DNA of 64,000 nucleotides from Anaerolineae bacterium (GCA_037439525.1 JBBIVW010000003.1:124393-188392), one strand, 5' to 3'. Shown: positions 28,906-63,399, numbered from the stretch's first letter. Notes: generated by a model not told the origin, from the sequence alone. Made by a program: numbers and translations.

Positions 28906-28928
28906 CGTTTCCGTTCTCCTGACATTGA

Positions 28929-29756
28929 TTATGTTTCATGATGCTCTAACATCGCCACATCATTGGCTGCATGCGACATGGCTTCACCGCTACCGCCCTG
29001 GCGTAGCATGATGACTTCCGCCAGGATGCTGACCGCAATTTCCTCGGGCGTTTCTGCCTGGATCTCCAAGCCAATAGGCGAACGCACGCGGTCGAGTTTC
29101 TCTTGAGGCACACCTTGAGCAAGCAACTGTTTACGCGTTGTAGCCCAACGTCTTCGAGACCCAATGATGCCGATATAAGCTGCAGGGCTATCCAACAATG
29201 GGGGTAACCCCGGAACATCGATCGTCACCCCGCGGGTGGTCAAGACAATGTATGTCCAGGGGGTGATTTCCATTTTGCGGGGAATCTCTGCCATGGGCAT
29301 GAGCAGGTATTCGTGAGCCTCTGGTACAGCTCGAGGGTTGCAGAACTCGGGTCGGTCGTCGCTGAGGACAACGCGAAACCCCAGCCAGTTCCCCAAATGC
29401 ACCACAGCTTTACCGACATGCCCGCCACCGATGACCAACAAAGTCGGCTTAGGTAGAATAGGCTCCAAAAATACCTCCAGTTGTCCGCCGCAAACGCCCG
29501 GATCGCCGCGTTCGGGGTCCACCATATTATATTCCAGCAGTTTGGGGCTGCCATGGCGAAGCGCTTCAAGGGCTTCGTGAATCACGCGATTCTCCAACTC
29601 CCCCCCGCCTATGGATCCCACAATGGCACCATCCGGGTAGACAAGCATCTTACTACCTGTATGGCGCGGCGTGGATCCGCGGCTGCGGATTAGGGTGCAC
29701 AACACACCTGCTTTTCCCTCCGCCTCCAATCGAGCAAGCGCCTCATAAATCGACAT
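28929..29756 (-). CDS. XdhC/CoxI family molybdenum-cofactor insertion chaperone
   Basis: An N-terminal XdhC_CoxI block (LCTLIRSRGSTPR...GSIGGGELE) and a C-terminal Rossmann-like block (LLVIGGGHVGKAV). Confidence 0.85.
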   Translation of the reverse strand: MSIYEALARLEAEGKAGVLCTLIRSRGSTPRHTGSKMLVYPDGAIVGSIGGGELENRVIHEALEALRHGSPKLLEYNMVDPERGDPGVCGGQLEVFLEPILPKPTLLVIGGGHVGKAVVHLGNWLGFRVVLSDDRPEFCNPRAVPEAHEYLLMPMAEIPRKMEITPWTYIVLTTRGVTIDVPGLPPLLDSPAAYIGIIGSRRRWATTRKQLLAQGVPQEKLDRVRSPIGLEIQAETPEEIAVSILAEVIMLRQGGSGEAMSHAANDVAMLEHHET

Positions 29757-29757
29757 C

Positions 29758-31104: not shown

Positions 31105-31106
31105 GT

Positions 31107-34100: not shown

Positions 34101-34142
34101 GAGTGAGTGCTTTTTATGGTTGATTTCCAAAGTAATTCTCAT
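31107..34142 (-). CDS. molybdenum hydroxylase large subunit fused to an N-terminal [2Fe-2S] module (XdhD/aldehyde-oxidase-like)
   Basis: GCETGECGACTILLDG, QCGYCTPAQ and LCRCTGY are followed by about 800 aa of molybdopterin-binding domain (GGGFGGK and GQIEGG blocks). Confidence 0.9.
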   Translation of the reverse strand: MRITLEINHKKHSLVASPKDTLLGVLRKLGFFGVKHGCETGECGACTILLDGKAVNACLILAAQAEGHSIEAIEALGEHPERGWKPSSGLHPIQHAFVETGAIQCGYCTPAQVLAARQLLEQNPDPNEEQVREALSGVLCRCTGYLKPVQAVLRAAARLRGEDVPPVDDEEWEQELIPAPSEWLPKDDLGGEAEDLPGGPISPALLRTRIMPRIHLAEQMPRLQRVGSPEVKVDAYKLVQGNPAFAADFEKRDLLIARVLRSPYAHAGIKRIDASKARALPGVAAVLTWEDIPRVAFSTAGQSDPIPGPLDTFSLDNKVRFVGDRVAFVAAETAEIAEKALELIEVEYEILPALLDSRQAMQPGAPILHDEPEYVNFAESDPHRNLAAEIRIDIGDVEQGFAEADHIFEAEYEVPKVNQAHIEPHVVITYWDEDDRLVIRTSTQVPFHARRILAPVLGLPMKRIRVIKPRIGGGFGGKQEVLIEDVAAHLTIATGRPVYYEYTREEEFIAGRSRHPMRIRMKTGVKKDGTLTANAMHVLTDTGAYGCHALTVTGNTGHKSMALYVGDGKYRQSPNIRFYADVVYTNHPPAGAYRGYGVPQGFWAVERHMEKIARALNLDPLEFRLKNALRAGELHPFSTAWSEGREPRPETILTCGLEECVRQGKALIGWDGKFNNSAWHHIPGKPFLRRGIGVALVMQGTAIPYLDMGAASIKLNDDGSFNLLVGATDLGTGSDTVLAQMAAEVLGVPLEDVIVYSSDTDFTPFDKGAYASSTTYISGGAVVKAAQQVAEKIRQRAARILNARSEEGLPVVEAEDLVLAERQAIAPDGRAVTLAEVALHSLHHTDQEQIMAVASFMSPVSPPPFAAQFAEVTVDIETGQVVVDRLVMAVDSGVIVNPLTASGQIEGGMTQALGYAVCEEMRYDEFGRAREHDLRDYHIFQAHEMPALETIFIETQEPSHPFGVKAVAEIPMDGVAPAVANAVYDACGADIDANPLTPEKVWRCLQLKVQG

Positions 34143-45361: not shown

Positions 45362-46144
45362 TCAAGAGGTGAGGCGAATGGCTTCCAGGCAGCGTTGGGT
45401 CAGCACGCCCGCCACATGGCAACGATATTCTGCGGAAGCCCACTCATCTTCAGCTTCGCTATAGGCACTTTGCGCGGCGAATGCCAGCCCATCCGCGGAG
45501 GGACCGTCGAAAGCCATCAGAGGCGCCTCCCCGAAACCGCCCAAGGCAAGACGCACTCTTCCCGAAGGCCATTCTGCCAGAGCAGCACAAACAATAGGGC
45601 GGTCCGCAGGGGTGCGCGCCACATAGCGATAAGCCAACCGTGGATGAAGAGGCAGGGACACCCGGGTAATCAAGCACCGGCGCAGCCGTTCGACGCGCAG
45701 GGGGAGCAGATCGCCCAAGGCGATGCGTTCCTCTTCGGGCAGCAGGGTAAGTTCAGCGTCCAGAGCCAGCATGGCCGTAGTAAACGGCGAGCGTCCATCA
45801 GCAGCTACGAGGGTACCCGCTATGCTACCCATCTGACGCAGGTTATGGGTGGCTTCGTGACGCAGAGCGTCTTGTAGGGCCGTGCGCAAGCGCACCTCTT
45901 CCCCGGCCGTCTCCAACCAATCTAAAAAAGATTGCAGCGTGGTAATCGCACCCAGATGAAGCACCTCTCCACGGCGTTCGATCTTGTTCAAGTCGAGTGC
46001 CTGTAAGTCCACCACGGCGAAATCCTGCTTCGAGGGACGGTTGACCACCGTACCACCCGCCATAGGCAGGGTAAGAGGGGTCTCTCTGGAGAGCAGACGC
46101 AAAGCCTGCTCTAATGTCTCCGGGCGATGATATTCGATAATCAT
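45362..46144 (-). CDS. stand-alone molybdenum hydroxylase FAD-binding subunit (CoxM/XdhB-like)
   Basis: MIIEYHRPETLEQALRLL...PMAGGT...IAGTL. The ATG at 46144 follows the upstream stop (46155). The longer ORF to 46297 was rejected. Confidence 0.75.
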   Translation of the reverse strand: MIIEYHRPETLEQALRLLSRETPLTLPMAGGTVVNRPSKQDFAVVDLQALDLNKIERRGEVLHLGAITTLQSFLDWLETAGEEVRLRTALQDALRHEATHNLRQMGSIAGTLVAADGRSPFTTAMLALDAELTLLPEEERIALGDLLPLRVERLRRCLITRVSLPLHPRLAYRYVARTPADRPIVCAALAEWPSGRVRLALGGFGEAPLMAFDGPSADGLAFAAQSAYSEAEDEWASAEYRCHVAGVLTQRCLEAIRLTS

Positions 46145-46154
46145 AAAAACATCC

Positions 46155-46622
46155 TCAATCTTCAGGGTAAACTTTCCAACCCAACTGTTCCAAATCCACA
46201 GCTTTGAGCGCTTCACCAGGCACATCCACCAGCAAAGCCTGCGCTTCAGCCAAAAGGCGGCCCTCCTGATCGTAGAGCGCACTCGTCGCCGAGGCAAGGC
46301 TGCGTTTGCTTTCCAAGGCGCGTCCTACCAGACGAATGGGTTGGCCAATGGGCACATGCTTCCGATAACGCACCTCCAGGCGCGCCGTGTACATGAACCG
46401 GGGGGCACCGCCGCTCATCCAGGCGCGGCCTGCAGCCTCGTCGAGCATGGCGGCAACGATACCTCCGTGCGCGACCCCAGGGTATCCCTGATATTCTTCG
46501 CTCAACACGGTTTCGGCGATCACCTCGCCTTCCGTAGTCTGATAAAAGCGCAAGCGTAGCCCAAAGCGATTCCCCATGCCACAAACAAAACAGCTTTTTG
46601 AATTGGGTTGCAATGTACGCAA
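46155..46622 (-). CDS. PaaI-family hotdog-fold thioesterase
   Basis: CFVCG...GVAHGGIVAAMLDEAAG block; 155 aa. Confidence 0.8.
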   Translation of the reverse strand: MRTLQPNSKSCFVCGMGNRFGLRLRFYQTTEGEVIAETVLSEEYQGYPGVAHGGIVAAMLDEAAGRAWMSGGAPRFMYTARLEVRYRKHVPIGQPIRLVGRALESKRSLASATSALYDQEGRLLAEAQALLVDVPGEALKAVDLEQLGWKVYPED

Positions 46623-46810
46623 GATGGCTCCTTTTTATGTTCTAAATTATACCCAAGCAGCCGGGTTTATACGACGCGCTTCAAAGTACCACAAGATGCT
46701 CAATTGGCTGCCTTTAATCCAATACGCCTCCAATTCGAGTATAATTTTTTATTCGCAGGAGAATTCAAGAACCAGGAAGGAGGTTTGCGGCAGAGAAGAA
46801 CTCGGGAAAG

Positions 46811-47010
46811 ATAGCGCATGGACTGGAGCAGGAACCTCCAGTTGACGAGGATGAGGGTTCCTGCCCGCAAGGGCAGGTTTACCGGACCATCGACAGGCTG
46901 CCCGCCTGGAGACCGGGAAAATCGAAGGATCAGCGGAAGCCCTCCGGGTGCGCACACCGCCCGACATCTTTCCCTCCACGAGAAATCCCGCCTAAACGCC
47001 ACAACGGCAA
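46811..47010 (+). ncRNA. glmS ribozyme/riboswitch-like leader (boundaries approximate)
   Basis: It lies upstream of glmS. There is an AT-A/GCGC cleavage-site-like start. An ACTGGAG/CTCCAGT hairpin has a GGAACC loop that can pair with a downstream GGTTCC (pseudoknot). The conserved-looking strings TGACGAGGATGAGG and ATCGAAGGATCAGCGGAAGCCCTCCGGGTG resemble the Bacillus core (GACGAGGAUG; AUCGAA..CGGCGGAUGCCUCCCGGCUG) as I recall it. Confidence 0.6.
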
Positions 47011-47126
47011 CGTTGCGGACAAAAAGCCGGGAAGTGTGCGGATAATCCGAACCGCCTCTGTGAAAGACAGGCTCTATGCCATCAAACGCGGAGACGGGAG
47101 GGAGACTCTTTTTGGAGGGATGCTCT

Positions 47127-48971
47127 ATGTGTGGAATAGTTGGCTATATTGGGCCGCGTCAAGCTACGCCCATCATCCTGAATGGCTTGAAGCGACTGGA
47201 ATACCGCGGCTACGACTCGGCTGGACTGGCAGTGTTGCAGGATGGCAGAATCGAGATTCGCCGCGAAGCGGGAAAGTTATCCCGACTGGAAGCACTGGTG
47301 CAAGCTCAGCCCCTAAGCGGAACAGCCGGTATTGGTCATACGCGTTGGGCCACCCATGGCGCGCCCAGCGCGCGCAATGCCCATCCACATATCGGCATGA
47401 CCGGCGAAGTGGTCATCGTGCACAATGGCATCGTCGAGAACTTCCTCGAATTGCGAGAAGAGCTCAGCGCGGAAGGGGTATCTTTCAATTCGGATACGGA
47501 TACCGAAGTCATTGTCCACCTGGTAGAGCGATACTTATCAGCAGATACATCTTTCGCAGAAGCCGCTCGTCTGGCATTGAAGCAGCTAAAGGGAGCACAC
47601 GGCATCGTCATGCTCTCCACGCGCGAGCCCGACAAGATCATCGCCGCACGCTTGGGTAACGCTGGCGGAGTGGTCATTGGCCTCGGTCAGGGAGAGACCT
47701 TCATCGCCTCGGATCTGCCTGCCATTTTGGAGCACACCCGCGAGGTGGTCTTTCTAGAATCGCGACAGATGGCCGTGGTCACCAGAGAGGGCGCACAGGT
47801 GCAGACCCTTGATGGGGTCGAGGTGGCAGCCGAAAGTCAACACGTGCCATGGGATCCAATATCCGCTGAAAAAGGGGAATATCGCCATTTCATGGCAAAG
47901 GAAATCCACGAGCAGGTGCGTTCGCTGACCGATACCATCGCCGGGCGCGTGGATCTGGAAAATGGACAGAACATCCGCTTACCGGAGTTGAACCTGACGG
48001 CTGAGTTCGCCCGCCGCATTAAAAAGATTTTCATCACCGCCTGCGGCACCGCTGCCCACGCCGGCATGGTGGGAAAAATGCTCATCGAACGCCTCGCCCG
48101 CCTGCCTACAGAAATGGAAATTGCCTCTGAGTTCCGCTATCGCGAGGCGATTATCGAAGCGGATACGGTATTGCTGGCGATCAGTCAGTCTGGGGAGACG
48201 GCGGACACACTGGCGGCCATGGAAGAAGGGCGGCGCAAAGGTGCAACGCTATGGTCGATCGTCAATGTCATTGGCTCGCAAGCCATGCGCCTGGCGGATG
48301 GCTATATCTCCATGCAGAGCGGGCCGGAGATCGGTGTGGCTTCCACCAAGGCTTACACGGCTCCACTGGTGGACCTTTATATGCTTGCCATCCTGCTGGG
48401 AGACCTGCGCGGCACGTTAACCCAGGTGCAAAAGCATAAGCTCATCGCCGACCTGCGCCTGATTCCCGACTTGGTAGGCCAGTGCCTGGATCGCGAGAGC
48501 GAGGTCGAAAAAGTGGCGCGCGCCCTATTGAACGTGCGCCATTGCCTGTACCTTGGGCGCGGCATCAATATGCCTACTGCGTATGAAGGCGCGCTCAAGC
48601 TCAAAGAGATTTCTTATATCCACGCCGAAGGTTACCCGGCGGGTGAGATGAAGCACGGACCGATCGCACTCATCGATCGGGAAATGCCGGTGGTGGTCAT
48701 CGCGCCGCGCGACCCGTGGTACGATAAGATGTTCAATCAGGTAGAACAGGCGAAAGCGCGAGGCGGGATCGTCATCGCCGTGGCTACGGATGGAGATGTG
48801 CGCCTGGCGGAAGTTGCCGACCACGTCCTCTGGATACCCGAAACACCATGGATGCTCAGCCCAGTAACAGCAGTGATTCCCCTGCAGTTGCTGGCATACC
48901 ACATAGCGGCGCTCAAAGGGCTGGATGTGGACCAGCCACGCAACCTGGCAAAGAGCGTCACCGTTGAGTGA
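47127..48971 (+). CDS. glmS: glutamine--fructose-6-phosphate aminotransferase (isomerizing)
   Basis: MCGIVGYIG N-terminal Cys nucleophile, two SIS domains, and the C-terminal LAKSVTVE. The ATG is at 47127. Confidence 0.95.
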   Translation: MCGIVGYIGPRQATPIILNGLKRLEYRGYDSAGLAVLQDGRIEIRREAGKLSRLEALVQAQPLSGTAGIGHTRWATHGAPSARNAHPHIGMTGEVVIVHNGIVENFLELREELSAEGVSFNSDTDTEVIVHLVERYLSADTSFAEAARLALKQLKGAHGIVMLSTREPDKIIAARLGNAGGVVIGLGQGETFIASDLPAILEHTREVVFLESRQMAVVTREGAQVQTLDGVEVAAESQHVPWDPISAEKGEYRHFMAKEIHEQVRSLTDTIAGRVDLENGQNIRLPELNLTAEFARRIKKIFITACGTAAHAGMVGKMLIERLARLPTEMEIASEFRYREAIIEADTVLLAISQSGETADTLAAMEEGRRKGATLWSIVNVIGSQAMRLADGYISMQSGPEIGVASTKAYTAPLVDLYMLAILLGDLRGTLTQVQKHKLIADLRLIPDLVGQCLDRESEVEKVARALLNVRHCLYLGRGINMPTAYEGALKLKEISYIHAEGYPAGEMKHGPIALIDREMPVVVIAPRDPWYDKMFNQVEQAKARGGIVIAVATDGDVRLAEVADHVLWIPETPWMLSPVTAVIPLQLLAYHIAALKGLDVDQPRNLAKSVTVE

Positions 48972-51009: not shown

Positions 51010-51311
51010 GACAATATATTCTCTTTATTAATTCACGTGTAGAAATAATTGGAGCAACGCTCTGCTCCAGTAAAGAGGTGAAAGTACCGCTCGCTTCTAA
51101 TATATCGAACATATGTTTCAATATTGTAACACATATTCGCTATGGATGCAGAGGATTTTTCTATCGATAGCAAAGTAGCCCAACCAATTCTCGGGTGCAT
51201 CTGAAGTGTCGAACTCCCCCTGGCTTGCTATTTACTTGTGGTCACAACAGCCAATCGCTACCCCTGGATGCGTTCGGCCCCCCTGGCAATAACCAGAGCT
51301 AGAGCTTAAGG

Positions 51312-52310
51312 CTACGCCTGAGCAAAGGTGTCGATGAGCAGCTTGGGGTCACCACCCACAGGATACAGGATTGGGCATGTGCAACCATGACGGCGATATT
51401 CTTCCACCTTCGCCCAAGCCTCGGAAGGCGTTCCCGATGCGGTAATGCGCTCAATCAAAGAGTCCGGCACAAGATGTTTGGCGCGTTGAATTTGCTCTTT
51501 TGTAGCGGGCCACCCCAAGATAGACTGAATCTCTGCCACGACCTGGGGCGAGACACCCGAAGCTTTGGCGATATGCGGCTGTTGCGCCAGGTATTGGGTA
51601 AGCAATTCGCGGGTCGAATCGAAGGCGCGATCGTGATCCTCATCCACTGAACAGACCACCAACTGCGGTCGGTCGAGGTCTTCGAGATAACGACCCGACT
51701 TGCGGGCGCCGAGAGCCAAAAGCTCCAAGGCGCGATCGTTGTATTCGGGTGGTACACAATAGTTGAGAACGACGCCATCTGCGATCTCACCGGTCAGCTC
51801 TAGCATCTTCTCTCCGGTAGCGCCGATCATAATGGGGACATGCCGCGGTTCGCGGCGCCCATGGACGACATCCAATTCAATGCCTTCAACGTGATGGAAC
51901 TCCCCATGGAAGGTGACGCGTTCCATGTTGAGCAAGCGCCGCAAAACCTCCACTGTCTCACGCATGGCGGTGAGCGGGTTACGCCGCTCGATGCCGACGT
52001 TGCGCGCTAAGGGATCCCACCACGCGCCGATACCGCAAATGATGCGGTTGGGCGCCAGATCGTCTAGGGTGAGAAATGTCGCGGCAAGCAAGCCGATGTT
52101 ACGCGTCCAATTGTTGATCACACCTGAGCCGACTTTGATTTTCTCGGTCACAGCAGCATAGGCAGCCATAGGGACGATGGCATCCCGCACCAGGCGAGAC
52201 TCTGCCTGCCAGACGGCCTCGAAGCCGCGCTGTTCAGCATAGCGCACATACTCCAATCCATCCCGTAAATCGTGTGCATCCTGCAAATAAAGGGCAACGC
52301 GTTCACTCAT
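51312..52310 (-). CDS. luciferase-like (LLM class) flavin/F420-dependent oxidoreductase
   Basis: 332-aa TIM-barrel LLM signature blocks (GFEAVWQAE...; GIGAWW). F420 dependence is inferred from the adjacent cof genes. Confidence 0.75.
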
Positions 52311-52392
52311 CTTACCTCCATTTCACCTTAGGGTAATAAAAATGCTCTTCATCAGGGACGTAGAAGCGTCCCGCAAACCTACTATCGGGCAT

Positions 52393-53013
52393 TTAGAAGA
52401 AGCCTTCCAGAGTCTGAGAGACCAGAGCCAAATCCTCTGGCAGGTCCATGTCTAAAGCCAGAGAAGGTAACTCACAGATTTCAAGGCGCGCGCCTGCCTG
52501 GCGTGCGCTTTCACAGTGCTTTCGAAACGAGTCTGGACCAAACTCATAGGTGATCAACCCCGCGGGGCAGACCAGCAAGGCATTCGTGCCGCGATGGCGA
52601 TGGTCTGGGGCAACCACAACTACAGGGGGCTGCGTTGCCCTGGCGAGCATGGCGCGTATATCCTCAGGGGTGAGGAGCGGTAAATCTGCCGGTACGATCA
52701 ACACGCCGCGCGTGGTATGCGTTTGAGCGATCACCGTCGCTCTGGTAAGCGCCAGGTTGAGCTGCGGGGCGCCCATCTCCTGAACGGTGCGCGCCCCATA
52801 CTGGCGCGCCAGGGCTAAAGCAGCCTGGTCGCGGCTTACCACGAGGATATGCTCGATCTCGCTTACCGCATCCAGCGTAGCCAGGGTGTGCGCCAGCAGG
52901 CGGCGATTCATATCGGCGCGCTCTTCTGCGGTTAGCACCTCAGCCAATCGAGATTTCCCCAACGACAGGGGCTTCACCGGCACAATCGCCCATAACGCCA
53001 TGCGTTCAATCAA
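52393..53013 (-). CDS. cofC: 2-phospho-L-lactate (or PEP) guanylyltransferase
   Basis: WAIVPVKPLSLGKSRL...ERADMNRRLLAHTL is the typical CofC/FbiD N-terminus; 206 aa. Confidence 0.8.
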   Translation of the reverse strand: MIERMALWAIVPVKPLSLGKSRLAEVLTAEERADMNRRLLAHTLATLDAVSEIEHILVVSRDQAALALARQYGARTVQEMGAPQLNLALTRATVIAQTHTTRGVLIVPADLPLLTPEDIRAMLARATQPPVVVVAPDHRHRGTNALLVCPAGLITYEFGPDSFRKHCESARQAGARLEICELPSLALDMDLPEDLALVSQTLEGFF

Positions 53014-53078
53014 TTCCTTTCACCAAAGGTTTTTGAAAATCAACTCACAGATTTTAACCCATCGAACAACACAAGTGC

Positions 53079-54041
53079 CTACCAGGTGGTAACAAAATCC
53101 AATATTTCTCGCGCCAGGCGTTCTCGATCGGCGAGCGAGGTCATCAGGGTATCGGTGACTAAAACTTCAAGTCCTAAACGGCGAATTTCCGCGGTTTGCG
53201 CCTTGTCCTGCCGGTCGAGCACAAAACCTCGTAGCCAAGGCTGGTAGTGTTGAGCCACAGCGAGGGCGCTGGGCTGCACACCGAGCTCTGCAAACATCTT
53301 GGCAGCAGGTCCTTTAACCGCCTGCCCCGCGATAATTGGCGATACCGCCACCACAGGTTTGCCTGCCAACCCTGCGCGCACCCCTGGCACAGCCAGGATC
53401 GGGTCGATGCTTACCCACGGATTCGAGGGACAGATCACAACCACATGCGCGGCTTCCAGAGCAGTGAGCACACCCGGCGCCGGACGGGCGCAGGCGTGGT
53501 TCTCGAACACAAACCCCTTGACGCGCGGTTGACATTGGCGCAGGACAAAATACTCCTGGAATGGAAGCAGCCCCTCATCGGTATCCACCTGGGTGGGAAT
53601 AGCCTCGTCGCTCATCGGCAGGACGCATGCCTGAATGCCCAAGGCGCGGCAGAAACTTTGGGTCACCTGGCTGAGGCGTTCACCAGTCGCCAGGCGTCGC
53701 GTGCGTTCCAGATGCAGGCCCAGGTCACGGTCCCCTAAACGAAACCAGCCTGGACCTCCCAATGAAACAACGGTCTCCAGAGCATGCCAGCTCTCTTCCG
53801 CGCGCCCCCAGCCGGTGGCAGGGTTGGCAATCCCCGCCAGGGTGTAGCATACGGTATCCAAATCGGGGCAGATATACAACCCCAGATGCGTGAAATCATC
53901 TCCGGTGTTCACGATGACGGTCAGCGCCTCAGGGGGCAGCACTCTGTTCAGACCATCCACAAGCTTGGCGCCTCCCACACCTCCAGCCAGCGCCACCAGG
54001 CGGTCAACCTTCACTGCGCCTTCTCCTTTTTTTTCCCTCAT
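53079..54041 (-). CDS. cofD: 2-phospho-L-lactate transferase
   Basis: LAGGVGGAKLVDGL and NTGDDF motifs; 320 aa. Confidence 0.9.
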   Translation of the reverse strand: MREKKGEGAVKVDRLVALAGGVGGAKLVDGLNRVLPPEALTVIVNTGDDFTHLGLYICPDLDTVCYTLAGIANPATGWGRAEESWHALETVVSLGGPGWFRLGDRDLGLHLERTRRLATGERLSQVTQSFCRALGIQACVLPMSDEAIPTQVDTDEGLLPFQEYFVLRQCQPRVKGFVFENHACARPAPGVLTALEAAHVVVICPSNPWVSIDPILAVPGVRAGLAGKPVVAVSPIIAGQAVKGPAAKMFAELGVQPSALAVAQHYQPWLRGFVLDRQDKAQTAEIRRLGLEVLVTDTLMTSLADRERLAREILDFVTTW

Positions 54042-54044
54042 GTC

Positions 54045-54830
54045 TCAACGAAACAAATCGAGTTCTTTTGGCCGCAGAAGCTCTTGCAAGCTGCCTTCTC
54101 GCAGAGGATACGGGAAGCCGCGCACATGTACTACTGGGGTGCCTTCGGCTGCCTGCCCCATGACCAAAGAGGCAGCCGCGGCAAGTTCATCTGCCGCGCC
54201 AACTTGAGTGATCTGCAGGCGGAAACCACACAAATCCGGAACGCCGCGCAAATCCACCAGGCCGGGCAAGCCGGATATCCCGATGGCGACACCTACTGTA
54301 CCCAGGCGCCAGGCGCGACCATGAGAATCGATGATCAGCACTCCCAACTTGCATCCGTATTTTGCCTCCAGGCGTTGACGGAGGCGTTGCGCCGAGGCAT
54401 CCGGGTCTTCGGGGAGGAGCAACACCCATTCCTCTGCTTGATCGTCATCGGGTGGGACATTGGAATGGTCCACTCCGGCGCTGGCACATATAAAGCCCAG
54501 GCGATGTTGGACGATCATCACCCCGGGGCGTGTACGCAGCACTTCGCTGCTCTCCCTCAAGATCAGTTCCACCAAGCGAGGGTCCTTGCCCGTTTCCTGA
54601 GCATAGCGCCTTGCCTGGTCGGAGGGATGGACCTCTCGCAGGTTCATTTTGCGCCCCTCCGCTTTTGAGACGACCTTTTGAGTGACAACCAGGATGTCTC
54701 CTTGTTCCAGAACGATGGCGTTGAAATCCAATGCCTGGGCGATAAGCTCGGCAAGATCGTCTCCTGCATGAACCAGGGGAAAGCCCTGAAGGGGCGTCAG
54801 ACACAAACGTCTGGCATTTTGGTCGGGCAT
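54045..54830 (-). CDS. cofE: coenzyme F420-0:L-glutamate ligase
   Basis: [17 protein letters not shown] and downstream Gly-rich blocks. It is a single-domain form of 261 aa with no nitroreductase fusion. Confidence 0.85.
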
Positions 54831-54844
54831 GGCGCGTTCTGCTT

Positions 54845-55531
54845 CTACCCCAAGGAGGGTGAAAGCCCTGAAATGTGCAGGGCAGCGGTTTTCACTTTAT
54901 AGTGCTTATTGATGCTGATCAGCAAAGCGGTCAACCCTTCGACGACGATGGCGTTATCCAAACCGCCCGCGTAAAACGCCTGCATGCCGGCGGCTTTCGT
55001 CAAGTCGATCACTTGAGCGGCAGCTTCCAGGTCATCGGCGCACACGAGTACATCTACATCCAGGGGGGTAGCCGGGTCCTGGCGCAAGACATGGGCTGGC
55101 ACGGTTTGAAAGGCAGCCACGACGCGCGCCTCCTCACCCAAGAAATTCTGCGCCAAACGAGCTGCTGATGGGGGCGGCGGAGGTAGCGGCTGCCGAAAGT
55201 CAACCCGCGCCGTGGCATCCACAAGCACTTTCCCTTGTAAACACCCGCGCAGCACCTCGAGCGCCGCTTGATGAGCAGTGTACACTACGGTCAAAACGCA
55301 TATATCCGCTTGCCGCGCCGCCTCCTGATTTTCCAGGCCCATGATGGTATCGAGATGCAGCAATGTATTCAGTTCATTCGCCGTGGCTACCGCTTTTTCT
55401 AACTGGCGCGAGCCGATGATGACTGAATAACCCGCATAAGCCCAGCGCATGGCTAAGCCAGGGCCTTCCTTGCCTGTGCCTCCCAAAATCGCGATCCTGG
55501 GCTTTGATGAATTTGCAGATTGCATGATCAC
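54845..55531 (-). CDS. NADPH-dependent F420 reductase (Fno/Npd family)
   Basis: IAILGGTGKEGPGLAMRWAYAGYSVIIGSR Rossmann N-terminus; 228 aa. Confidence 0.8.
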   Translation of the reverse strand: MIMQSANSSKPRIAILGGTGKEGPGLAMRWAYAGYSVIIGSRQLEKAVATANELNTLLHLDTIMGLENQEAARQADICVLTVVYTAHQAALEVLRGCLQGKVLVDATARVDFRQPLPPPPPSAARLAQNFLGEEARVVAAFQTVPAHVLRQDPATPLDVDVLVCADDLEAAAQVIDLTKAAGMQAFYAGGLDNAIVVEGLTALLISINKHYKVKTAALHISGLSPSLG

Positions 55532-56880
55532 TCCTCAAATTGTCGCTGATATCGCTCCCAAACTGCCGGGGCAACCTCTTGGCCTAAAGTGGCAATCTCG
55601 GCTTCATCCAGAGTGAGCAGGTGACGATCGCGCATGATCACGCGGCCATCCACCAGCATGGTAGTAACCATGCTCTCATGAAAACCAAAAATGATGTGCC
55701 AGGGGAGGTTTTCCGCGGTGAGAGGCGTGTAAGGATGGTAATCCACAAAGATGATATCCGCATAGGCTCCGGGAACGATGACGCCAATTGGCGCTTCGGC
55801 AAACAACTGCCCGGCGAGCCTTTGGTGGTTATACACACCCATGCGCGCTACATCCAAACCGGACATACGGCGCGGATCGCGGCGCCATAACTTGTGTACC
55901 AGATAGGCGGCTTTCCACTCTTCCCACATGGTGTGAGAAAAGCCATCCGTGCCCAGGCAGACATTGATCCCCGCGCGCAGAAAGCCTTCCACATCCGCCA
56001 CACCGACGCCGTTGTTCATGTTCGAGCGTGGCTGATGAGTCACCCAAGTGTTGGTTTCTGCAAGCAGTTGCACTTCGCGGGCATCTACATGAACCGCATG
56101 CACCACGATGGAGCGAGGCCCCAAAATGCCATGCTGATAGAGTCGGTCGACAACGCGCGTGCCGTACCGCGCCAGCGAATCGTATTCATCCGCTTCGTGC
56201 TCCGCAACGTGGATATGAAAACCAAGCTCTTGAGGCGCTGCCTGGCGGCAGGCGCGCAACGTCTCTTCCGACAATGTGAGGCTGGCATGCAATCCGAAGG
56301 TGGCCGACAGCCTCCCTGCGGCATTATCTCCTCTCTGGAGGCGGGTGAAAAAGCGCAGGTTTTCCTCGATGCCGGCGCGGGCTTTTGCCTCACCATCGCG
56401 ATCCGTAACCTCGTAGCACAACGCGGCACGCAAGCCGGCACGTTCCACCGCCTCCGCAATGATGTCCAATGAGCCCGAAATGGCGTTAGGCGAGGCATGG
56501 TGATCGATAAGGGTTGTCGTGCCATGCTTGATGGCATCCACCAACATGACCAATGCAGAAAGCCGTATGGCTTCTTCATCCAAAGAGCGATCCAAAGGCC
56601 ACCAAAGCTTTTGCAGGATTTCAGGAAAATCCTTGGGCGGGGCGCCCGGAATGGCCATGCCGCGCGCAAACGCGCCATAGAAATGCGTGTGCGCACAAAT
56701 GTTTCCGGGCATTACCAGTTGATGGCGCGCGTCCAATTTTTCTTCGTTAGGATAGGCTTTCTCAAGTTCCTCCTGGGGTCCAAGTGCGGTAATGTGACTT
56801 CCACGGATCAGCAGAGCAAATCCCTCTAAGATGCGGTTCGGCTGTTCCCAGGTGATGATCGTGCCGTTGGTGATCAACAT
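55528..56880 (-). CDS. SsnA-like amidohydrolase (chlorohydrolase/aminohydrolase family)
   Basis: VMPGNICAHTHFYGAFARG (HxH metal site) and an overall architecture like E. coli SsnA as I recall it. It overlaps fno by 4 nt. Confidence 0.75.
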   Translation of the reverse strand: MLITNGTIITWEQPNRILEGFALLIRGSHITALGPQEELEKAYPNEEKLDARHQLVMPGNICAHTHFYGAFARGMAIPGAPPKDFPEILQKLWWPLDRSLDEEAIRLSALVMLVDAIKHGTTTLIDHHASPNAISGSLDIIAEAVERAGLRAALCYEVTDRDGEAKARAGIEENLRFFTRLQRGDNAAGRLSATFGLHASLTLSEETLRACRQAAPQELGFHIHVAEHEADEYDSLARYGTRVVDRLYQHGILGPRSIVVHAVHVDAREVQLLAETNTWVTHQPRSNMNNGVGVADVEGFLRAGINVCLGTDGFSHTMWEEWKAAYLVHKLWRRDPRRMSGLDVARMGVYNHQRLAGQLFAEAPIGVIVPGAYADIIFVDYHPYTPLTAENLPWHIIFGFHESMVTTMLVDGRVIMRDRHLLTLDEAEIATLGQEVAPAVWERYQRQFEE

Positions 56881-56892
56881 GTCAACACCTCC

Positions 56893-59712
56893 TCAAACTT
56901 CTTTTCCCGATGAGGCGATAGCCAACGCAGCGAGGATTTTCTCTTGATCCACCGGCAGGCGGTCGACGCGCACGCCGCATGCATGGTAGATCGCGTTGGT
57001 GATTGCCGGGGTAGTGGGAATGCTGACGATCTCGCCAATCCCTTTCGCACCATACGGGCCTTCGCGCGTAGGGTGCTCGACGATGATGGGGATGATCTGC
57101 GGTGTGTGTATGATGGAAGGGATGCGGTAGCGCGCCAGGCGGTCGGTGAAGACGACACCCTCTTCAACAATGAATTCTTCGGTCAACGCGTTTCCCAGGC
57201 CCATCATCACGCCTCCCTCCACCTGCCCTTGTAAGCCGAGGGGGTTTATCGCCCGGCCTACATCTAAAGCAGAAATGACGCATAGGACGCGCACCTCTCC
57301 CGTTTTCAGATTGACCTCCACCTCGGCTGCTTGAGCGGCAAAGGCGTAAGCGAAATGCATATCCCCTCCCTCTCCCAGGGGCTGGGTGGCCGGCGCCCAA
57401 TACTCGTAAAGGGCACGCGGTTCACGTCCCTCGGCGCGCAGCATCGCCACAACATCGCCCAGCGGGATGGAGTGCCCATTCACTTGCGCCAAGCCTTCAA
57501 CAAAACGCACGCTTTCCGGGGGTTGGTCGAACTTTTCAGCAATCGTGGAAGCGACTGCCTGGCGCAAGGTGCGTGCCGCATACAGAGCAGCGTTGCCGGT
57601 GACAAAGGTTTGGCGCGAGGCAGTGGTTGGACCGCCGTCAGGGGTGAGATCCGTATCCATGACGAGCACGCGCACCCGCTCTGGAGGCACACTGAACTCC
57701 TCAGCCACGATCATGCGCAGTACCGTGACCAGTCCCTGCCCTAATTCTGCCGAGGAAGTGCGCACTTCAAAAGTACCGTCGGAAAACAGCTCAACCTCTG
57801 CGCCGGCTTTGTCTGGCGCCCCTCCACCCAAACCGGTGTTCTTGAAAGCCGCAGCCACTCCCCAGGCACGCCGCAAATGTTCCGCTCCGGGCACCACGCG
57901 TGGACGAAAAGGCTGATCGCCAGCCACGCGCTTTAGTTCTTCTTCGAGACGGTCCAGGCACTCCAGCAAACCAACGCTCTCTGTAAGCAATTGCCCGGTA
58001 TTGGTAACGCTGCCGACGCGCAGCGCGTTAAGGCGCCTAATCTCAACAGGGTCAAGATGCAGTTCGTGCGCCAGCATATCCATCATGCTCTCAATCGCAA
58101 AGGCAGACTGTGTAACGCCAAAACCGCGAAAGGCGCCTGCAGGTGGGTTATTGGTGTACATGGCGTAACAATCCGCGCGGGCATGAGGCAGATCGTATGG
58201 GCCGGTGGAATGGGTTGTGGCGCGCGTCATCACCTTTTCGCCCAGGGAAGCATAGGCGCCGGTATCTCCATAAAGCTCGGTTTGCACCGCGAGCAGACGC
58301 CCATCGCGCCGCGCTCCCAGGCGCACTTTGATTTGCGTGGCGTGGCGTTTGGGGTGCACCAGCAGACTTTCATGGCGGTCAAAAAGCAGCTTTACCGGCC
58401 GACCGGTGGCATGCGCGAGCAAAGCCGCGTGGATTTGACCGGCGATATCCTCCTTGCCTCCAAACCCCCCTCCCATGGTTTGACCAACAATACGCACACG
58501 CTCCGGCGGCCAACCCAAGGCGCGCGCCACTTGATGACGGTCTGCGTAAGGAATCTGAGAACCAACATACACTTCCATGCGCCCATCGGGTAATGGACGC
58601 GCCAGGCTACACTCTGGTTCGATGAACGCGTGATCGGTCATCGGGGTGTAAAAAGTGTGTTCCAGAAGCAGGTCTGCTTGGGCAAACCCCTGCTCCACAT
58701 CCCCTTTACGCACTTTGATGTGCTTCAATAGATTTCCGGAGGCGTGCAACTGAGGCGCCTGTGGCTGGCGCGCCTGCACAGGGTCGACAACCACCGGCAA
58801 TGGTTCCCATTCGGCCTGGATCAAGTCCAAGGCTTGGGTAGCGATCTCTCTGCTCTCTGCAGCAACGATGGCCAGGGCATCGCCGACATAGCGCACGCGC
58901 TCTCCTATCCCCACCATGATTGGCCAATCGTAGATCACCAAGCCGTGATTGTGCTCTCCAGGGATGTCCTCGGCAGTAAGGACGCACACCACGCCCGGCA
59001 AAGCGCGCGCCGCTTCAACATCGAGACGTTTGAGGATCGCATGGGGTACCCCGGCGCGTTTCACACGTGCATGGAGCATGCCCTCAAAACTGAGATCATC
59101 GGTAAAGCGCGCCGTGCCGCAAACTTTTTCAATGGCATCCGGGCGGATATGAGGGTGACCTACCACGTGCGTGGGTGAAGTGGGATGAGGCTCGGTGGGA
59201 AGGGTTAACGCCTCTCCGCTTTGCATACTCCTGGCTGCAGCAAGCACAGCACGAATAATGCTCGGATAGCCACCGCAGCGACACAAGGTATCCTTCAACG
59301 CCTGACGCACTTCGTCCTCGCCTGGCACAGGGTTTTTCTTGAGCAGGGCATAAGAAGCCATGATCTGCCCCGGTATGCAAAAACCGCATTGCACCGCTCC
59401 ATATAACACAAACGCCTGCTGCAGCGGGTGAAGTGCCTCAAGACCCGGCGGCTGATGCGTATGCCCTAAAGAGGCAATTTCTGCCATCAGACCCTCGATA
59501 GTGAGCACCTCCCTGCCGTCGGCTTTAGCCGCGGGAAAAGTGCAGGAAAGCACTGCTTCACCGTCCACAAGCACGGTGCAGGCGCCACATTCAGCTTCGT
59601 TACAACCAATCTTCGTGCCGGTCAAGCCGAGGCGATAACGTAATAAGTCCGCCAACATTTCGCCCGGCACCTCCGCCAACTCATACCATTGATGATTTAC
59701 CCGAATACGCAT
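56893..59712 (-). CDS. [2Fe-2S]-molybdopterin fusion hydroxylase subunit (XdhD-like)
   Basis: GCNEAECGACTVLVDG, QCGFCIPGQ and LCRCGGY are followed by a molybdopterin-binding domain (GGGFGGK, GQVEGG). Confidence 0.9.
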   Translation of the reverse strand: MRIRVNHQWYELAEVPGEMLADLLRYRLGLTGTKIGCNEAECGACTVLVDGEAVLSCTFPAAKADGREVLTIEGLMAEIASLGHTHQPPGLEALHPLQQAFVLYGAVQCGFCIPGQIMASYALLKKNPVPGEDEVRQALKDTLCRCGGYPSIIRAVLAAARSMQSGEALTLPTEPHPTSPTHVVGHPHIRPDAIEKVCGTARFTDDLSFEGMLHARVKRAGVPHAILKRLDVEAARALPGVVCVLTAEDIPGEHNHGLVIYDWPIMVGIGERVRYVGDALAIVAAESREIATQALDLIQAEWEPLPVVVDPVQARQPQAPQLHASGNLLKHIKVRKGDVEQGFAQADLLLEHTFYTPMTDHAFIEPECSLARPLPDGRMEVYVGSQIPYADRHQVARALGWPPERVRIVGQTMGGGFGGKEDIAGQIHAALLAHATGRPVKLLFDRHESLLVHPKRHATQIKVRLGARRDGRLLAVQTELYGDTGAYASLGEKVMTRATTHSTGPYDLPHARADCYAMYTNNPPAGAFRGFGVTQSAFAIESMMDMLAHELHLDPVEIRRLNALRVGSVTNTGQLLTESVGLLECLDRLEEELKRVAGDQPFRPRVVPGAEHLRRAWGVAAAFKNTGLGGGAPDKAGAEVELFSDGTFEVRTSSAELGQGLVTVLRMIVAEEFSVPPERVRVLVMDTDLTPDGGPTTASRQTFVTGNAALYAARTLRQAVASTIAEKFDQPPESVRFVEGLAQVNGHSIPLGDVVAMLRAEGREPRALYEYWAPATQPLGEGGDMHFAYAFAAQAAEVEVNLKTGEVRVLCVISALDVGRAINPLGLQGQVEGGVMMGLGNALTEEFIVEEGVVFTDRLARYRIPSIIHTPQIIPIIVEHPTREGPYGAKGIGEIVSIPTTPAITNAIYHACGVRVDRLPVDQEKILAALAIASSGKEV

Positions 59713-59781
59713 GGAAACCCTTTTTCTAATCTACTCAATCGAGCATATATGCTTCCGTAATTGGTTCACGCACGCATTGCC

Positions 59782-60663
59782 TCACGCGTTCCTGGCAGAG
59801 CGCTGCCAGGCGCGAGTCAACGTCTCTTCCAGCAGTTGGGCTGCCATCTGACGACGATAATCCTTGGTGGCGCGATGCGGACTGGTGCGGAAACTGACTT
59901 CCGCCAACAAGGCAGTGATTGCGCCCTGGAGCACTTCCGAGGTGAGGGGTTGTTGAGCAAGCGCCTTTTCTGCCTGATAAGCCCGCCTGGGCGTTGGGCC
60001 CGCCGGCCCGATTGAGATACGCACCTCTTGAATACGATTGCCCAGCCTTTTCAACCATACGCCCATGTTGAGAATGGCAATCGCCACCCCCTGGGGTCGC
60101 ATGACGCGCTGAAACACAGAGGCTTCGCCAGGGCGACGCGCAGGGATATAGAATCCGACCAGAAGCTCGTTGCGCGGATGAAGCGCGGACCTGCCCGGTG
60201 CGAGGAACAGGCTTTCTATCGACTGGCGGTGCACTCCCTGTCTGTGGGCAATTTCAGCATGCGCATCCAGGCAAAGCAAGGCAATTGTGCCGTCGCCGGC
60301 GGGCAGGGCATGGGCAACATTCCCACCCAATGTGGCCGTATTGCGCACCTGAGGACCACCAATGAGGCGCGCGGCTTCTAATACCGCGTGGGCATGTTCT
60401 GCGACAAGTTTCGAAGAGATCACGCGATTCAATGGCACTGCTGCCCCAATGAACAGTTCCTCTCCACGCATTTCTATTACGCTCAATTCCGGGATATGGG
60501 TGATGTCAACCAGAGTATGCACCGGCTCATGGCGGCTCTGCTGGAGGTCTAAAAGCAAGTCTGTCCCCCCTGCGATGACCCTGGAAGGCGCCTCGCTTTG
60601 TTCTAATAGCGCCAGGGCATCGTCAATTGATCTCGCGAGATGATACTTCTTCCATAAGGGCAT
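59782..60663 (-). CDS. molybdenum hydroxylase FAD-binding subunit (YgfM/CoxM-like)
   Basis: VIAGGTDLLLDL and RNTATLGGNV blocks; 293 aa. Confidence 0.85.
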   Translation of the reverse strand: MPLWKKYHLARSIDDALALLEQSEAPSRVIAGGTDLLLDLQQSRHEPVHTLVDITHIPELSVIEMRGEELFIGAAVPLNRVISSKLVAEHAHAVLEAARLIGGPQVRNTATLGGNVAHALPAGDGTIALLCLDAHAEIAHRQGVHRQSIESLFLAPGRSALHPRNELLVGFYIPARRPGEASVFQRVMRPQGVAIAILNMGVWLKRLGNRIQEVRISIGPAGPTPRRAYQAEKALAQQPLTSEVLQGAITALLAEVSFRTSPHRATKDYRRQMAAQLLEETLTRAWQRSARNA

Positions 60664-61597: not shown

Positions 61598-62019
61598 CAT
61601 TTTTCAATATCCTGGCTACGCAAGCCATCGATAAATCCAGGGGAGGACAACATCAACATACTATTTATTAGAGATAAACGCGTCCATCAAGCCCAAAACG
61701 CTGTACTCAACCCAAGATTTCAACAGACAACATCCGAGCGATATACCTGCAAGGTCAAGTTGCATGGGCTTATGCTGCATCAATCCGGCATCGAGGCTCA
61801 TCATTTACAGAGGAGCTCAATATGATGTAAGGCCGTCAATCGAAAATGGCTCCAACCATAAAACTCCATCAGCCCAAACCTATGACCGCCAATGAAGTAC
61901 GATGAAGGTCTCCAACCTCACCTGCATTACCGCATCTGAATATCTAAGCGAAGGGCATGGGGTACAATAAAGCCTGGTTTTATGTATCAGCACGTCATTT
62001 CTTTTACAGGAGATACTCA

Positions 62020-63399
62020 ATGGAAACAAAGTTGAACGCGACTCTCGATTACTTCCATGCGCACTCCGAAGCATTTATCGACAACCTCAAGCAGCTTGTG
62101 CGTATTCCTTCGATCTCTACGGATGCGCGAGCCAAAGAAGACATCCAGCGCGCCGCCCATTGGGTGCGCGAAAAGTTGGAAGCGATAGGCATGCAACGCA
62201 CGCGCCTCCTACCTTCAGAGGGGCATCCTGTAGTCTATGGCGAATGGCTGCAAGCTGGAGCAGAGAAACCAACCGTATTGATCTATGGCCACTACGATGT
62301 CCAACCCCCAGAACCTTTGGAGCTTTGGGACAGCCCACCTTTTGAGCCCACCCGCCGCGGCGAAAACCTGTACGGGCGGGGGGCTTCGGACATGAAAGGG
62401 CAGGTGGTCATTACACTTTCCGCGGTAGAAGCGTGGATGAACAATGGTGGCTTGCCGGTGAACGTCAAATTCCTGATCGAAGGGGAGGAGGAGATCGGCT
62501 CTCCTCACCTCGGCCAGGTCATCGCCGAGAACAAAGTCCTGCTGAAATGCGACTTTGCTCTGAACACCGATACGGGAATGTTGGGCGCGGAGCTTCCCAC
62601 CATTACCTATGGGCTAAGAGGCTTGGCATACTTCGAGATACGCGTGCAGGGACCAAAACACGATCTCCACTCAGGTATCTATGGTGGTGTGGTGCACAAC
62701 CCGGCGCAGGCGCTATGCGAGTTGATCGCCGGTATGCATGATGCCGATGGACGGGTTACCTTGCCTGGGTTCTACGACCGTGTCAAGCCGTTAGACGAAG
62801 AGGAAAGGAGAGAGCTTGCCAGACTCCCGCTAGACGATAGCTTTTACCTCCAGCAAACCGGAGCACCGGCTTTGTTTGGTGAAAAAGGCTACTCGCCGGT
62901 CGAACGCATTGGAGCGCGACCGACCCTGGAGGTCAATGGGCTGCTTTCCGGTTTCACCAGCGAAGGTGCAAAAACCGTATTGCCGGCCAAAGCCATGACA
63001 AAGATCTCCATGCGCCTGGTGCCCGATCAAGACCCTGAAGAAGTGCACCAACAACTTATAGCCTACATGAAAACGCATGCGCCTAAAACCGTGCAATGGG
63101 AAGTGATTTCCATGGCGGGCGCGCCGGCTTCACTCACCGACCGCCACATTCCCGCGGTGCGCGCGATGAGCCAGGCACTGGAAGCGACCTGGGGGAAGTT
63201 GCCTGTCTTCCGTCGTGAGGGCGGTTCTGTACCCGTAGTATCCCAGATGCACACCATTCTGGGGATAGAATCGGTGCTGACCGGCTTTGGGTTGCCAGAT
63301 GACAACTTGCACGCGCCCAACGAAAAAATCCACCTGCCCACCTTTCTGCGCGGCGTCGAAGCGGTTGCGCGCTTCCTGGGCGTGCTTGGGGCAGCCTGA
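62020..63399 (+). CDS. M20 family dipeptidase (ArgE/DapE/ACY1-like)
   Basis: GHYDVQP, RGASDMKG and EGEEEIGS metal and catalytic motifs. The ATG at 62020 is preceded by AGGAG. Confidence 0.85.
   Translation: METKLNATLDYFHAHSEAFIDNLKQLVRIPSISTDARAKEDIQRAAHWVREKLEAIGMQRTRLLPSEGHPVVYGEWLQAGAEKPTVLIYGHYDVQPPEPLELWDSPPFEPTRRGENLYGRGASDMKGQVVITLSAVEAWMNNGGLPVNVKFLIEGEEEIGSPHLGQVIAENKVLLKCDFALNTDTGMLGAELPTITYGLRGLAYFEIRVQGPKHDLHSGIYGGVVHNPAQALCELIAGMHDADGRVTLPGFYDRVKPLDEEERRELARLPLDDSFYLQQTGAPALFGEKGYSPVERIGARPTLEVNGLLSGFTSEGAKTVLPAKAMTKISMRLVPDQDPEEVHQQLIAYMKTHAPKTVQWEVISMAGAPASLTDRHIPAVRAMSQALEATWGKLPVFRREGGSVPVVSQMHTILGIESVLTGFGLPDDNLHAPNEKIHLPTFLRGVEAVARFLGVLGAA

Follow-up and report, generated by a model that had tools for sequence, protein, structure and literature searches.

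We analysed a stretch of 64,000 nucleotides (nt) from an Anaerolineae bacterium (GCA_037439525.1, JBBIVW010000003.1:124393-188392), hereafter the window, in which eight co-directional minus-strand genes at positions 51312-60663 bring together a molybdenum hydroxylase, the amidohydrolase SsnA, enzymes for the biosynthesis and recharging of the cofactor F420, and a luciferase-like oxidoreductase (LLM). Gene families were typed with Pfam and NCBIfam/TIGRFAM models against curated cut-offs. This confirmed the eight open reading frames (ORFs), their order and their families as a first-pass annotation, made from the sequence of the window alone, had given them (Table 1). SsnA, Fno, CofE, CofD and CofC passed equivalog cut-offs, and the FAD subunit and the [2Fe-2S]x2-molybdopterin fusion protein (FeS-Mo) proved to be members of the xanthine dehydrogenase (XDH) family that fall below any equivalog cut-off.

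When the longest ORFs are taken, the intergenic gaps in block order measure 69, 12, -4, 14, 3, 65 and 82 nt. These values agree with the first-pass annotation, but the 4-nt overlap that it described between ssnA and fno is likelier a gap of 2 nt: a GAGGA Shine-Dalgarno sequence sits directly against the GTG of fno, which makes the ATG two codons on, at 55525, the likelier start. The start of cofC is probably the ATG at codon 5 (53001), four codons later, which would widen the cofD-cofC gap to ~77 nt, and the start of cofD may be a GTG that lies 9 or 15 codons further on, leaving a gap of 30-48 nt. All gaps are at or below 82 nt, and the eight genes may be co-transcribed. A consensus scan found no consensus terminator in the intergenic gaps of the block, site counts matching those of shuffled sequence, and promoter counts inside the block were likewise no higher than in shuffled sequence. 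The folds of the three longest gaps were ordinary (z -0.3 to -1.9), and an Rfam search of 50-62 kb, with E values up to 1, returned no riboswitch or leader RNA. The only terminator-like site outside coding sequence on the strand of the block is a hairpin beyond the LLM gene.

Table 1. Coordinates of the cluster genes and related features; positions refer to the window unless a contig is named.
Feature	Position	Strand	Evidence or content
FAD subunit of molybdenum hydroxylase	59782-60663	-	FAD_binding_5 (PF00941) and CO_deh_flav_C (PF03450)
[2Fe-2S]x2-molybdopterin fusion (FeS-Mo)	56893-59712	-	Six Pfam families, including two [2Fe-2S], hammerhead and MoCoBD_1/2
SsnA	55528-56880	-	NF005540, 516.2 bits (cut-off 444); TIGR03314, 480.8 bits (cut-off 455.5)
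Fno, NADPH:F420 oxidoreductase	54845-55531	-	TIGR01915, 182.6 bits (cut-off 149.8)
CofE, F420-0:gamma-glutamyl ligase	54045-54830	-	TIGR01916, 276 bits (cut-off 181)
CofD, 2-phospho-L-lactate transferase family	53079-54041	-	TIGR01819, 314 bits (cut-off 257)
CofC, guanylyltransferase	52393-53013	-	TIGR03552, 171 bits (cut-off 105)
LLM, luciferase-like oxidoreductase	51312-52310	-	PF00296, 218 bits
Terminator-like hairpin	51050-51069	-	Consensus scan and fold (weak evidence); ~240 nt past the LLM stop codon
PaaI-like thioesterase	46155-46622	-	
YgfM-like FAD subunit	45362-46297, likely 45362-46144	-	28% identity to E. coli YgfM, full length
XdhD-like FeS-Mo fusion	31107-34142	-	36.5% identity to E. 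coli XdhD, full length
Gene group beginning with the XdhD-like fusion	27472-34142	-	XdhD-like fusion, DHH pyrophosphatase, XdhC-type maturation factor, FAD/FeS fusion
M20 metallopeptidase	61957-63399	+	Divergent; NF006053 'dipeptidase', 526 bits, over cut-off
Purine-catabolic island	Contig C1:539224-565161 (L142, L143)		

Conservation of the cluster

The adjacency of ssnA with fno and the cof genes is not unique to this strain. Among LLM-centred loci from public genomes (Anaerolineales, Anaerolinea, Bellilinea, Levilinea, Longilinea, Leptolinea and Pelolinea), SsnA, Fno, CofE and CofC occurred together in 50 of the 56 loci with at least 7 kb of upstream sequence. SsnA orthologues (61-72% identity) were present in 30 of 40 sampled relatives, belonging to 17 families of the order, and six more relatives had only a paralogue or fragments; SsnA, Fno and CofE were adjacent in most of 29 related ssnA loci. 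The gene order seen in 20-kb views of relatives was SsnA-Fno-CofE-[variable insert]-CofD-CofC-LLM. The arrangement, repeated in dozens of Anaerolineales genomes, is far beyond chance, and the block is a genuine gene cluster conserved across the order. Its most conserved gene is that of the LLM, with 74-89% identity as against 61-72% for SsnA, in loci that were chosen by SsnA.

We also searched an even sample of 121 Chloroflexota genomes, in which an LLM orthologue was present in 21 and SsnA in 29. Twenty genomes had both genes, one had only the LLM, nine had only SsnA and 91 had neither. The positive genomes fall into three clades, so that the pattern reflects few independent events. Outside the class Anaerolineae (loci L149-L157), the LLM (65-71% identity) lies directly beside Fno in eight of nine loci, ~10-15 nt apart, and in three of the nine a three-subunit XDH stands next to the pair. 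Neither ssnA nor cof genes are near the LLM-Fno pair in these nine loci, and some of the genomes encode FbiC. In non-Anaerolineae genomes, SsnA lies together with an XdhD-like XDH and with homologues of genes that our Anaerolineae genome carries in the purine-catabolic island of contig C1, namely those for a hydantoinase, a carbamoyltransferase, a CysK-like pyridoxal phosphate (PLP) enzyme, and adenine and 8-oxoguanine deaminases.

In a sub-group of Anaerolineales, the interval from cofC to the LLM gene holds two additional genes (L081:5879-9859, and also L097, L098, L110-L112, L121, L126 and L131). In L081 one of them, for a DPD/GltD-like FeS flavoprotein, is apparently split into two ORFs, and the other encodes a second SsnA paralogue (42-45% identity).

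Cluster enzymes and the reductive urate pathway

The pathway of the E. coli ygeW...xdhD region and of its counterparts in clostridia was reconstituted in two preprints of 2025; the organisms for which it is established are E. coli, Clostridium sporogenes and Clostridioides difficile (bioRxiv 10.1101/2025.05.19.654654, 10.1101/2025.04.24.650524). In this pathway, uric acid is reduced to 2,8-dioxopurine (isoxanthine) by XdhD-YgfM, or by XdhAC in C. sporogenes; 2,8-dioxopurine is then reductively dearomatised by YgfK, or by UacX in C. difficile, and, after ring opening by SsnA, the enzymes HyuA, YgeW or UacY, YgeY and YgeX lead to pyruvate. YgfK was active only if coupled to SsnA. The statement in the first-pass annotation that the E. 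coli cluster lacks a known substrate is thus outdated. The first of the two preprints (bioRxiv 10.1101/2025.05.19.654654) also noted, from bioinformatic evidence only, that Chloroflexota SsnA neighbourhoods have no YgfK or UacX and proposed a PF00296 protein as an F420-dependent isoxanthine reductase; it was the only source in our literature search that links F420 with the reductive urate pathway.

The SsnA of the window (family IPR017700) is 34% identical to E. coli SsnA over its full length, and the two proteins have in common, all aligned, the motifs HxH (AHTH versus SHNH), IDHHASP, HIHxAE, RSNMNN and GTDG, of which IDHHASP is missing from guanine deaminase in an alignment comparison. Hydrolysis of reduced 2,8-dioxopurine to ureidomethyl-hydantoin is an activity known for the E. 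coli enzyme only (bioRxiv 10.1101/2025.05.19.654654, 10.1101/2025.04.24.650524); by analogy with it, the window protein is predicted to be an amidohydrolase that opens the six-membered ring of the reduced purine.

A search of our genome for YgfK gave as its best TIGR03315 match a protein with 265 bits against a cut-off of 835, which aligned with the GltD-like part only. No UacX-like gene lies near the cluster, and the only DHO_dh genes of the genome, one PyrD-like and the other a weak match on contig C8, are both unlinked. The LLM is the candidate reductase in their place. Its 16 best NCBIfam matches were all to F420-class LLM models, with Mer at the top (165 bits), whereas FMN classes reached at most 33 bits; it reaches no NCBIfam subfamily cut-off. 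A sequence search of PDB gave Mer as the best match (E 2.5e-38), together with Fgd and Adf, and SsuD at E 3e-8. The AlphaFold model (pLDDT 87.9) had F420-dependent LLMs as all of its top 30 fold matches, with TM scores of 0.75-0.87, and FMN enzymes scored no higher than 0.71. By ranking of hidden Markov models (HMMs), by PDB sequence search and by predicted fold, the protein is Mer-like and of the F420 rather than the FMN class, as the F420H2-dependent role given to it in the first-pass annotation requires.

Mer (PDB 8QPL, 1Z69 and 1F07) is the closest solved relative of the LLM (fold TM scores 0.86-0.87 at 24-29% identity) and transfers hydride from F420H2 to a carbon of an N-heterocycle, like the role that we propose here. 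However, the LLM is not a Mer equivalog, its score lying well below the Mer model cut-off of 276 bits; no tetrahydromethanopterin (H4MPT) context turned up in the window or among the genes examined, a genome-wide search not having been made, and its genomic partners are purine-catabolic genes. The possibility that it serves as a replacement methylene-folate reductase was rejected, since two canonical MetF genes in the genome make such a role unnecessary. We propose the LLM as an F420H2:2,8-dioxopurine reductase, its putative substrate and the direction of the reaction being deduced from the pathway context.

The hydroxylase of the block had been labelled as YgfM/XdhD-type in the first-pass annotation, and this label did not hold. 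The best NCBIfam model for the FAD subunit is XdhB (193 bits, under cut-off); E. coli XdhB matches the protein at 30% identity and E. coli YgfM gives no match. Seven orthologues with at least 70% length coverage were found among 80 LLM loci. For the FeS-Mo protein the best NCBIfam model is TIGR03311, of selenium-dependent XDH, with 783 bits against a cut-off of 830, and identities are 30% to E. coli XdhD and 35% to XdhA. Since orthologues of the FeS-Mo protein stand upstream of ssnA in only 13 of 54 loci, comparison of the loci marks the block pair as an accessory part, XdhB-like and selenium-XDH-like, and SsnA with the F420 genes and the LLM as the conserved core. The FeS-Mo hydroxylase of the block probably feeds urate or 2,8-dioxopurine into the pathway.

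The true YgfM-like and XdhD-like genes of the window are found outside the block. E. coli YgfM matches the genome at one place only (45362-46297), and orthologues of this YgfM-like subunit come directly after the LLM gene in 25 of 69 related loci. The XdhD-like fusion has as its best NCBIfam model TIGR03313, the XdhD type, at 704 bits and thus under the cut-off of 1102; its orthologues (65-77% identity) are found downstream of the LLM gene in 22 of 54 loci. It has a Glu aligned with E606 of E. coli XdhD and keeps the Glu-Gly and the adjacent loop, whereas in the FeS-Mo protein of the block a Glu occupies the E606 column and the loop is missing; because gaps adjoin this part of the alignment, E606 discriminates only suggestively between the two fusions. 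On these comparisons, the XdhD-like fusion is a candidate for the enzyme that converts uric acid to 2,8-dioxopurine.

The displaced genes belong with the block, since in relatives their orthologues follow the LLM gene, in a fixed series of PaaI-like thioesterase, YgfM-like subunit, XdhD-like fusion, DHH pyrophosphatase, XdhC and FAD/FeS fusion. The window retains these blocks with order and strand unchanged but spaced apart, with glmS/LysM/M23 genes inserted in one gap and an ECF sigma module and a heliorhodopsin operon in the other. In this sense the eight-gene block makes up the first third of a larger supercluster, putatively purine-catabolic and in part dispersed.

Candidates for the later steps lie in the island on contig C1. 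It encodes 8-oxoguanine and adenine deaminases, a GntR regulator, ATCase-like and OTC/YgeW-like carbamoyltransferases, a carbamate kinase, a D-hydantoinase, two sets of BMP-type ABC transporters, threonine-synthase-like and CysK-like PLP enzymes, and two ~500-aa proteins without a family. Cut-offs are exceeded by the D-hydantoinase (TIGR02033, 530 bits; cut-off 393) and by the carbamate kinase, and the OTC/YgeW-like carbamoyltransferase falls short of them. The genome also encodes SelD, YqeB and YqeC, whose presence fits selenium-dependent hydroxylases.

Several minor features accompany the hydroxylase genes. Many Anaerolineales loci (e.g., L078:11005-11490) keep a gene for the PaaI-like hotdog thioesterase between those for the LLM and the YgfM-like subunit. 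Downstream of the FAD/FeS fusion, a 576-aa ORF (25236-26966, minus strand) has no NCBIfam match and has an orthologue at the same place in locus L127; the separate molybdenum subunit expected near it is absent there in this genome. The selD gene (C6:61206-62135, minus strand) has one in-frame TGA, presumably a selenocysteine codon, and YqeB, YqeC and two MocA genes adjoin a third XDH molybdenum subunit on contig C8 (45.6-50.7 kb).

F420 supply

Canonical F420 biosynthesis relies on FbiC or CofG/CofH, CofC/FbiD, CofD/FbiA and CofE/FbiB (PMC8498797). The window has CofC, CofD and CofE over their cut-offs, plus Fno for recharging. Unlike the canonical route, the genome has no detectable synthase for the FO head group, and CofE is single-domain, without the C-terminal domain of FbiB, for which no separate FbiB-C-like nitroreductase makes up. 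The three cof genes are the only set in the genome; one further CofD-family match lies on contig C4, in a 451-aa frame.

That FO synthase was missing from the window had been noted in the first-pass annotation, and the search of the whole genome (95.9% complete, 3.12 Mb) was likewise negative: neither the CofG nor the CofH model found a match, and a tblastn search with Chloroflexota FbiC gave a best E value of 0.25. No FO synthase scored over cut-off in any of 41 relatives or of ten genomes of the order in the phylum sample; this genome apart, 50 genomes of the order were without one. As a positive control, the same search detected FbiC/CofH over cut-off in 19 of the 121 Chloroflexota genomes. 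Three relatives showed tandem matches to the FO synthase models below cut-off, which we take to be menaquinone MqnE/MqnC-type paralogues.

With FO synthase found neither in this genome nor in the searched genomes of the order, the cluster cannot supply its own cofactor, as had first been supposed. FO is widely released by the organisms that produce it. Because no FO synthase was found, uptake is the simplest reading, and FO is probably scavenged from outside. Obligate FO auxotrophy, which would tie purine catabolism to FO-releasing neighbours such as methanogens, is the more likely explanation; we found no description of such an auxotrophy of Anaerolineales in the literature searched. We regard it as very unlikely that, instead of FO scavenging, the head group comes from an unrecognised biosynthetic route or CofC, CofD and CofE place their tail on a different head group.

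F420 is not a private cofactor of a purine pathway, an idea that we rejected because the genome encodes other F420-class proteins, namely three further LLMs over F420-class cut-offs and one DUF385 protein. Relatives vary in what lies between cofE and cofD: of 58 loci, 34 have an FbiB-C-like nitroreductase there, 19 a TIGR03618 F420-PPOX protein and 18 a 2H phosphoesterase (e.g., L139:7425-8426, L062:7353-8288 and L066:7862-8410). All three inserts are absent from our genome, so that its F420 tail chemistry may differ; the only match to the nitroreductase, a protein on contig C5 with 28% identity, was rejected as an orthologue. Among relatives, Fno occurs at the same position of the locus in two forms, with ~62-74% and ~37-51% identity to the Fno of the window, which suggests replacement by a paralogue.

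Reductive purine degradation as the proposed role

We propose that the block is the upstream half of an Anaerolineales version of the anaerobic reductive degradation of urate and other purines through 2,8-dioxopurine, with F420 in place of the YgfK step, and give this reading a probability of about 0.65. Molybdenum hydroxylases would convert purines to uric acid and this in turn to 2,8-dioxopurine, the candidates being the FAD and FeS-Mo pair of the block and the displaced YgfM-like/XdhD-like pair. Fno would recharge F420 from NADPH, and the Mer-like LLM would pass the hydride of F420H2 to 2,8-dioxopurine, dearomatising the ring as YgfK does in E. coli and UacX in C. difficile. SsnA would hydrolyse the labile reduced ring at once and so pull an unfavourable reduction forward. 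CofC, CofD and CofE would attach and extend the F420 tail on FO taken up from outside, and the later steps would be carried out by enzymes of contig C1 (539-566 kb): the hydantoinase, the carbamoyltransferase with the carbamate kinase, and the PLP enzymes. The absence of YgfK, the F420 class of the LLM, and the co-occurrence and synteny of SsnA and LLM support an F420-dependent reductase. The same synteny, co-occurrence and absence support the first-pass proposal that a hydroxylase, SsnA and an F420H2-dependent LLM act on one N-heterocycle, although the order of steps has to be changed, since reduction would precede ring opening. The central idea of that annotation appears largely right and had already been predicted in print.

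The proposed pathway has several features in common with the one reconstituted in E. coli and clostridia: an SsnA over its cut-offs, XDH-family hydroxylases that include a YgfM-like/XdhD-like pair, a hydantoinase, a carbamoyltransferase and a carbamate kinase, and the selenium trait (SelD, YqeB and YqeC). It differs in having a Mer-like F420-class LLM and Fno in place of YgfK or a clustered UacX, in the F420 tail genes interleaved with the catabolic ones, in the distribution of the genes over at least three loci, and in the lack of detected YgeX/YgeY equivalogs. With a PF00296 protein near SsnA and no YgfK or UacX, the window is a member of the Chloroflexota variant proposed in bioRxiv 10.1101/2025.05.19.654654. 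In the consulted portion of that preprint, the variant takes up one sentence and one panel of an SsnA network, without an anatomy of the cluster. Relative to that portion, our analysis adds the interleaving of fno, cofE, cofD and cofC, the absence of FO synthase across the order, the pairing of LLM and Fno beyond Anaerolineae, the accessory character of the adjacent XDH, and the YgfM/XdhD genes that come after the LLM.

According to a review of 2021, the reason why Chloroflexota produce F420 was not known, and no physiological role of F420 had been tested outside Actinobacteria (PMC8498797). The cluster offers a concrete role for F420 in the primary metabolism of Chloroflexota, in which F420H2 would reduce, and so dearomatise, the purine ring when urate and purines are degraded without oxygen. 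Anaerolineales are very abundant in anaerobic digesters and sediments. If the proposal is true, the LLM would represent a new F420-dependent activity, that of a purine-ring reductase, and a third, cofactor-distinct solution to the step of YgfK and UacX, and Anaerolineales would depend on FO made by other organisms.

A number of points weigh against this proposal. In Chloroflexota the pathway is predicted from genes. As the LLM meets no curated family cut-off, its family does not indicate its substrate. The compared genomes are related, so that our counts overstate independence. For the late steps, the genome gave no YgeX or YgeY equivalog, only PLP and M20 relatives, and the weak DHO_dh-like gene on contig C8 may be an analogue of UacX. 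Nine Chloroflexota genomes have SsnA without an LLM orthologue and, in the loci inspected, without YgfK, which implies that SsnA can work with some other reductase. A sub-group of Anaerolineales carries the DPD/GltD-like flavoprotein and the second SsnA paralogue beside the LLM, and the three other F420-class LLMs and the DUF385 protein mean that the cof genes could sit here for other reasons.

An alternative is that the block is primarily the general F420 tail and recharging operon of the lineage and that ssnA and the LLM gene are mere neighbours in it, the LLM having another substrate and SsnA another reductase. The genome does have other users of F420 and holds its only cofCDE set here; SsnA does without the LLM in nine genomes, a DPD-like flavoprotein stands beside the second SsnA of some relatives, and C8 carries the unassigned DHO_dh-like gene. 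We nevertheless consider this alternative unlikely: SsnA is present in 20 of the 21 genomes with the LLM, in three separate clades, YgfM-like and XdhD-like genes flank the LLM on its other side in many relatives, the LLM-Fno pair stands beside a three-subunit XDH in three of nine loci even outside the class, and the genome has no YgfK.

It is also conceivable, though improbable, that the genes do degrade an N-heterocycle with F420H2 but that this substrate is not urate or 2,8-dioxopurine but xanthine, a product derived from 8-oxoguanine, a pterin or another purine analogue. Specificity would then be set by the adjacent selenium-XDH-like hydroxylase, which is not XdhD-like (30% identity, without the loop after E606); Mer, the nearest characterised relative of the LLM, acts on a pterin, and the identity of SsnA to its E. 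coli counterpart reaches only 34%. Yet this SsnA exceeds the cut-offs of both SsnA-specific HMMs and keeps the SsnA-specific motifs, the conserved supercluster includes an XdhD-like/YgfM-like pair, and the linked genes elsewhere resemble those of the urate pathway, as they encode a hydantoinase, a carbamoyltransferase along with a carbamate kinase, and purine deaminases. Finally, the order-wide retention of cofC, cofD and cofE without a detectable FO synthase in this genome or 50 relatives, in a search that does find FbiC in 19 of 121 Chloroflexota genomes, might suggest that Anaerolineales reach deazaflavin, or another head group, along a pathway that has nothing to do with CofG/CofH/FbiC and in which the cluster genes take part, but this is hardly credible, as an amidohydrolase and an F420-class LLM lack plausible deazaflavin-ring chemistry, LLM-Fno and SsnA also occur in FbiC-bearing genomes, SsnA there in a purine-catabolic cluster, and uptake of an FO widely released by producers is simpler.

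Beside the cluster, the divergent M20 metallopeptidase is found next to it in ~20 related loci, and could, at low confidence, be a ureido-cleaving amidase. It was rejected as YgeY, having 26% identity to the E. coli protein over partial length and belonging to a different NCBIfam family, and is kept as a weak candidate. A DUF1361 protein, considered as a conserved partner such as a transporter, was rejected because it is adjacent in a handful of loci only. The sole Rfam match in the whole window is a glmS ribozyme (RF00234; 43.9 bits, gathering score 37) on the plus strand at 46802-47042, which immediately precedes glmS (47076-48971).

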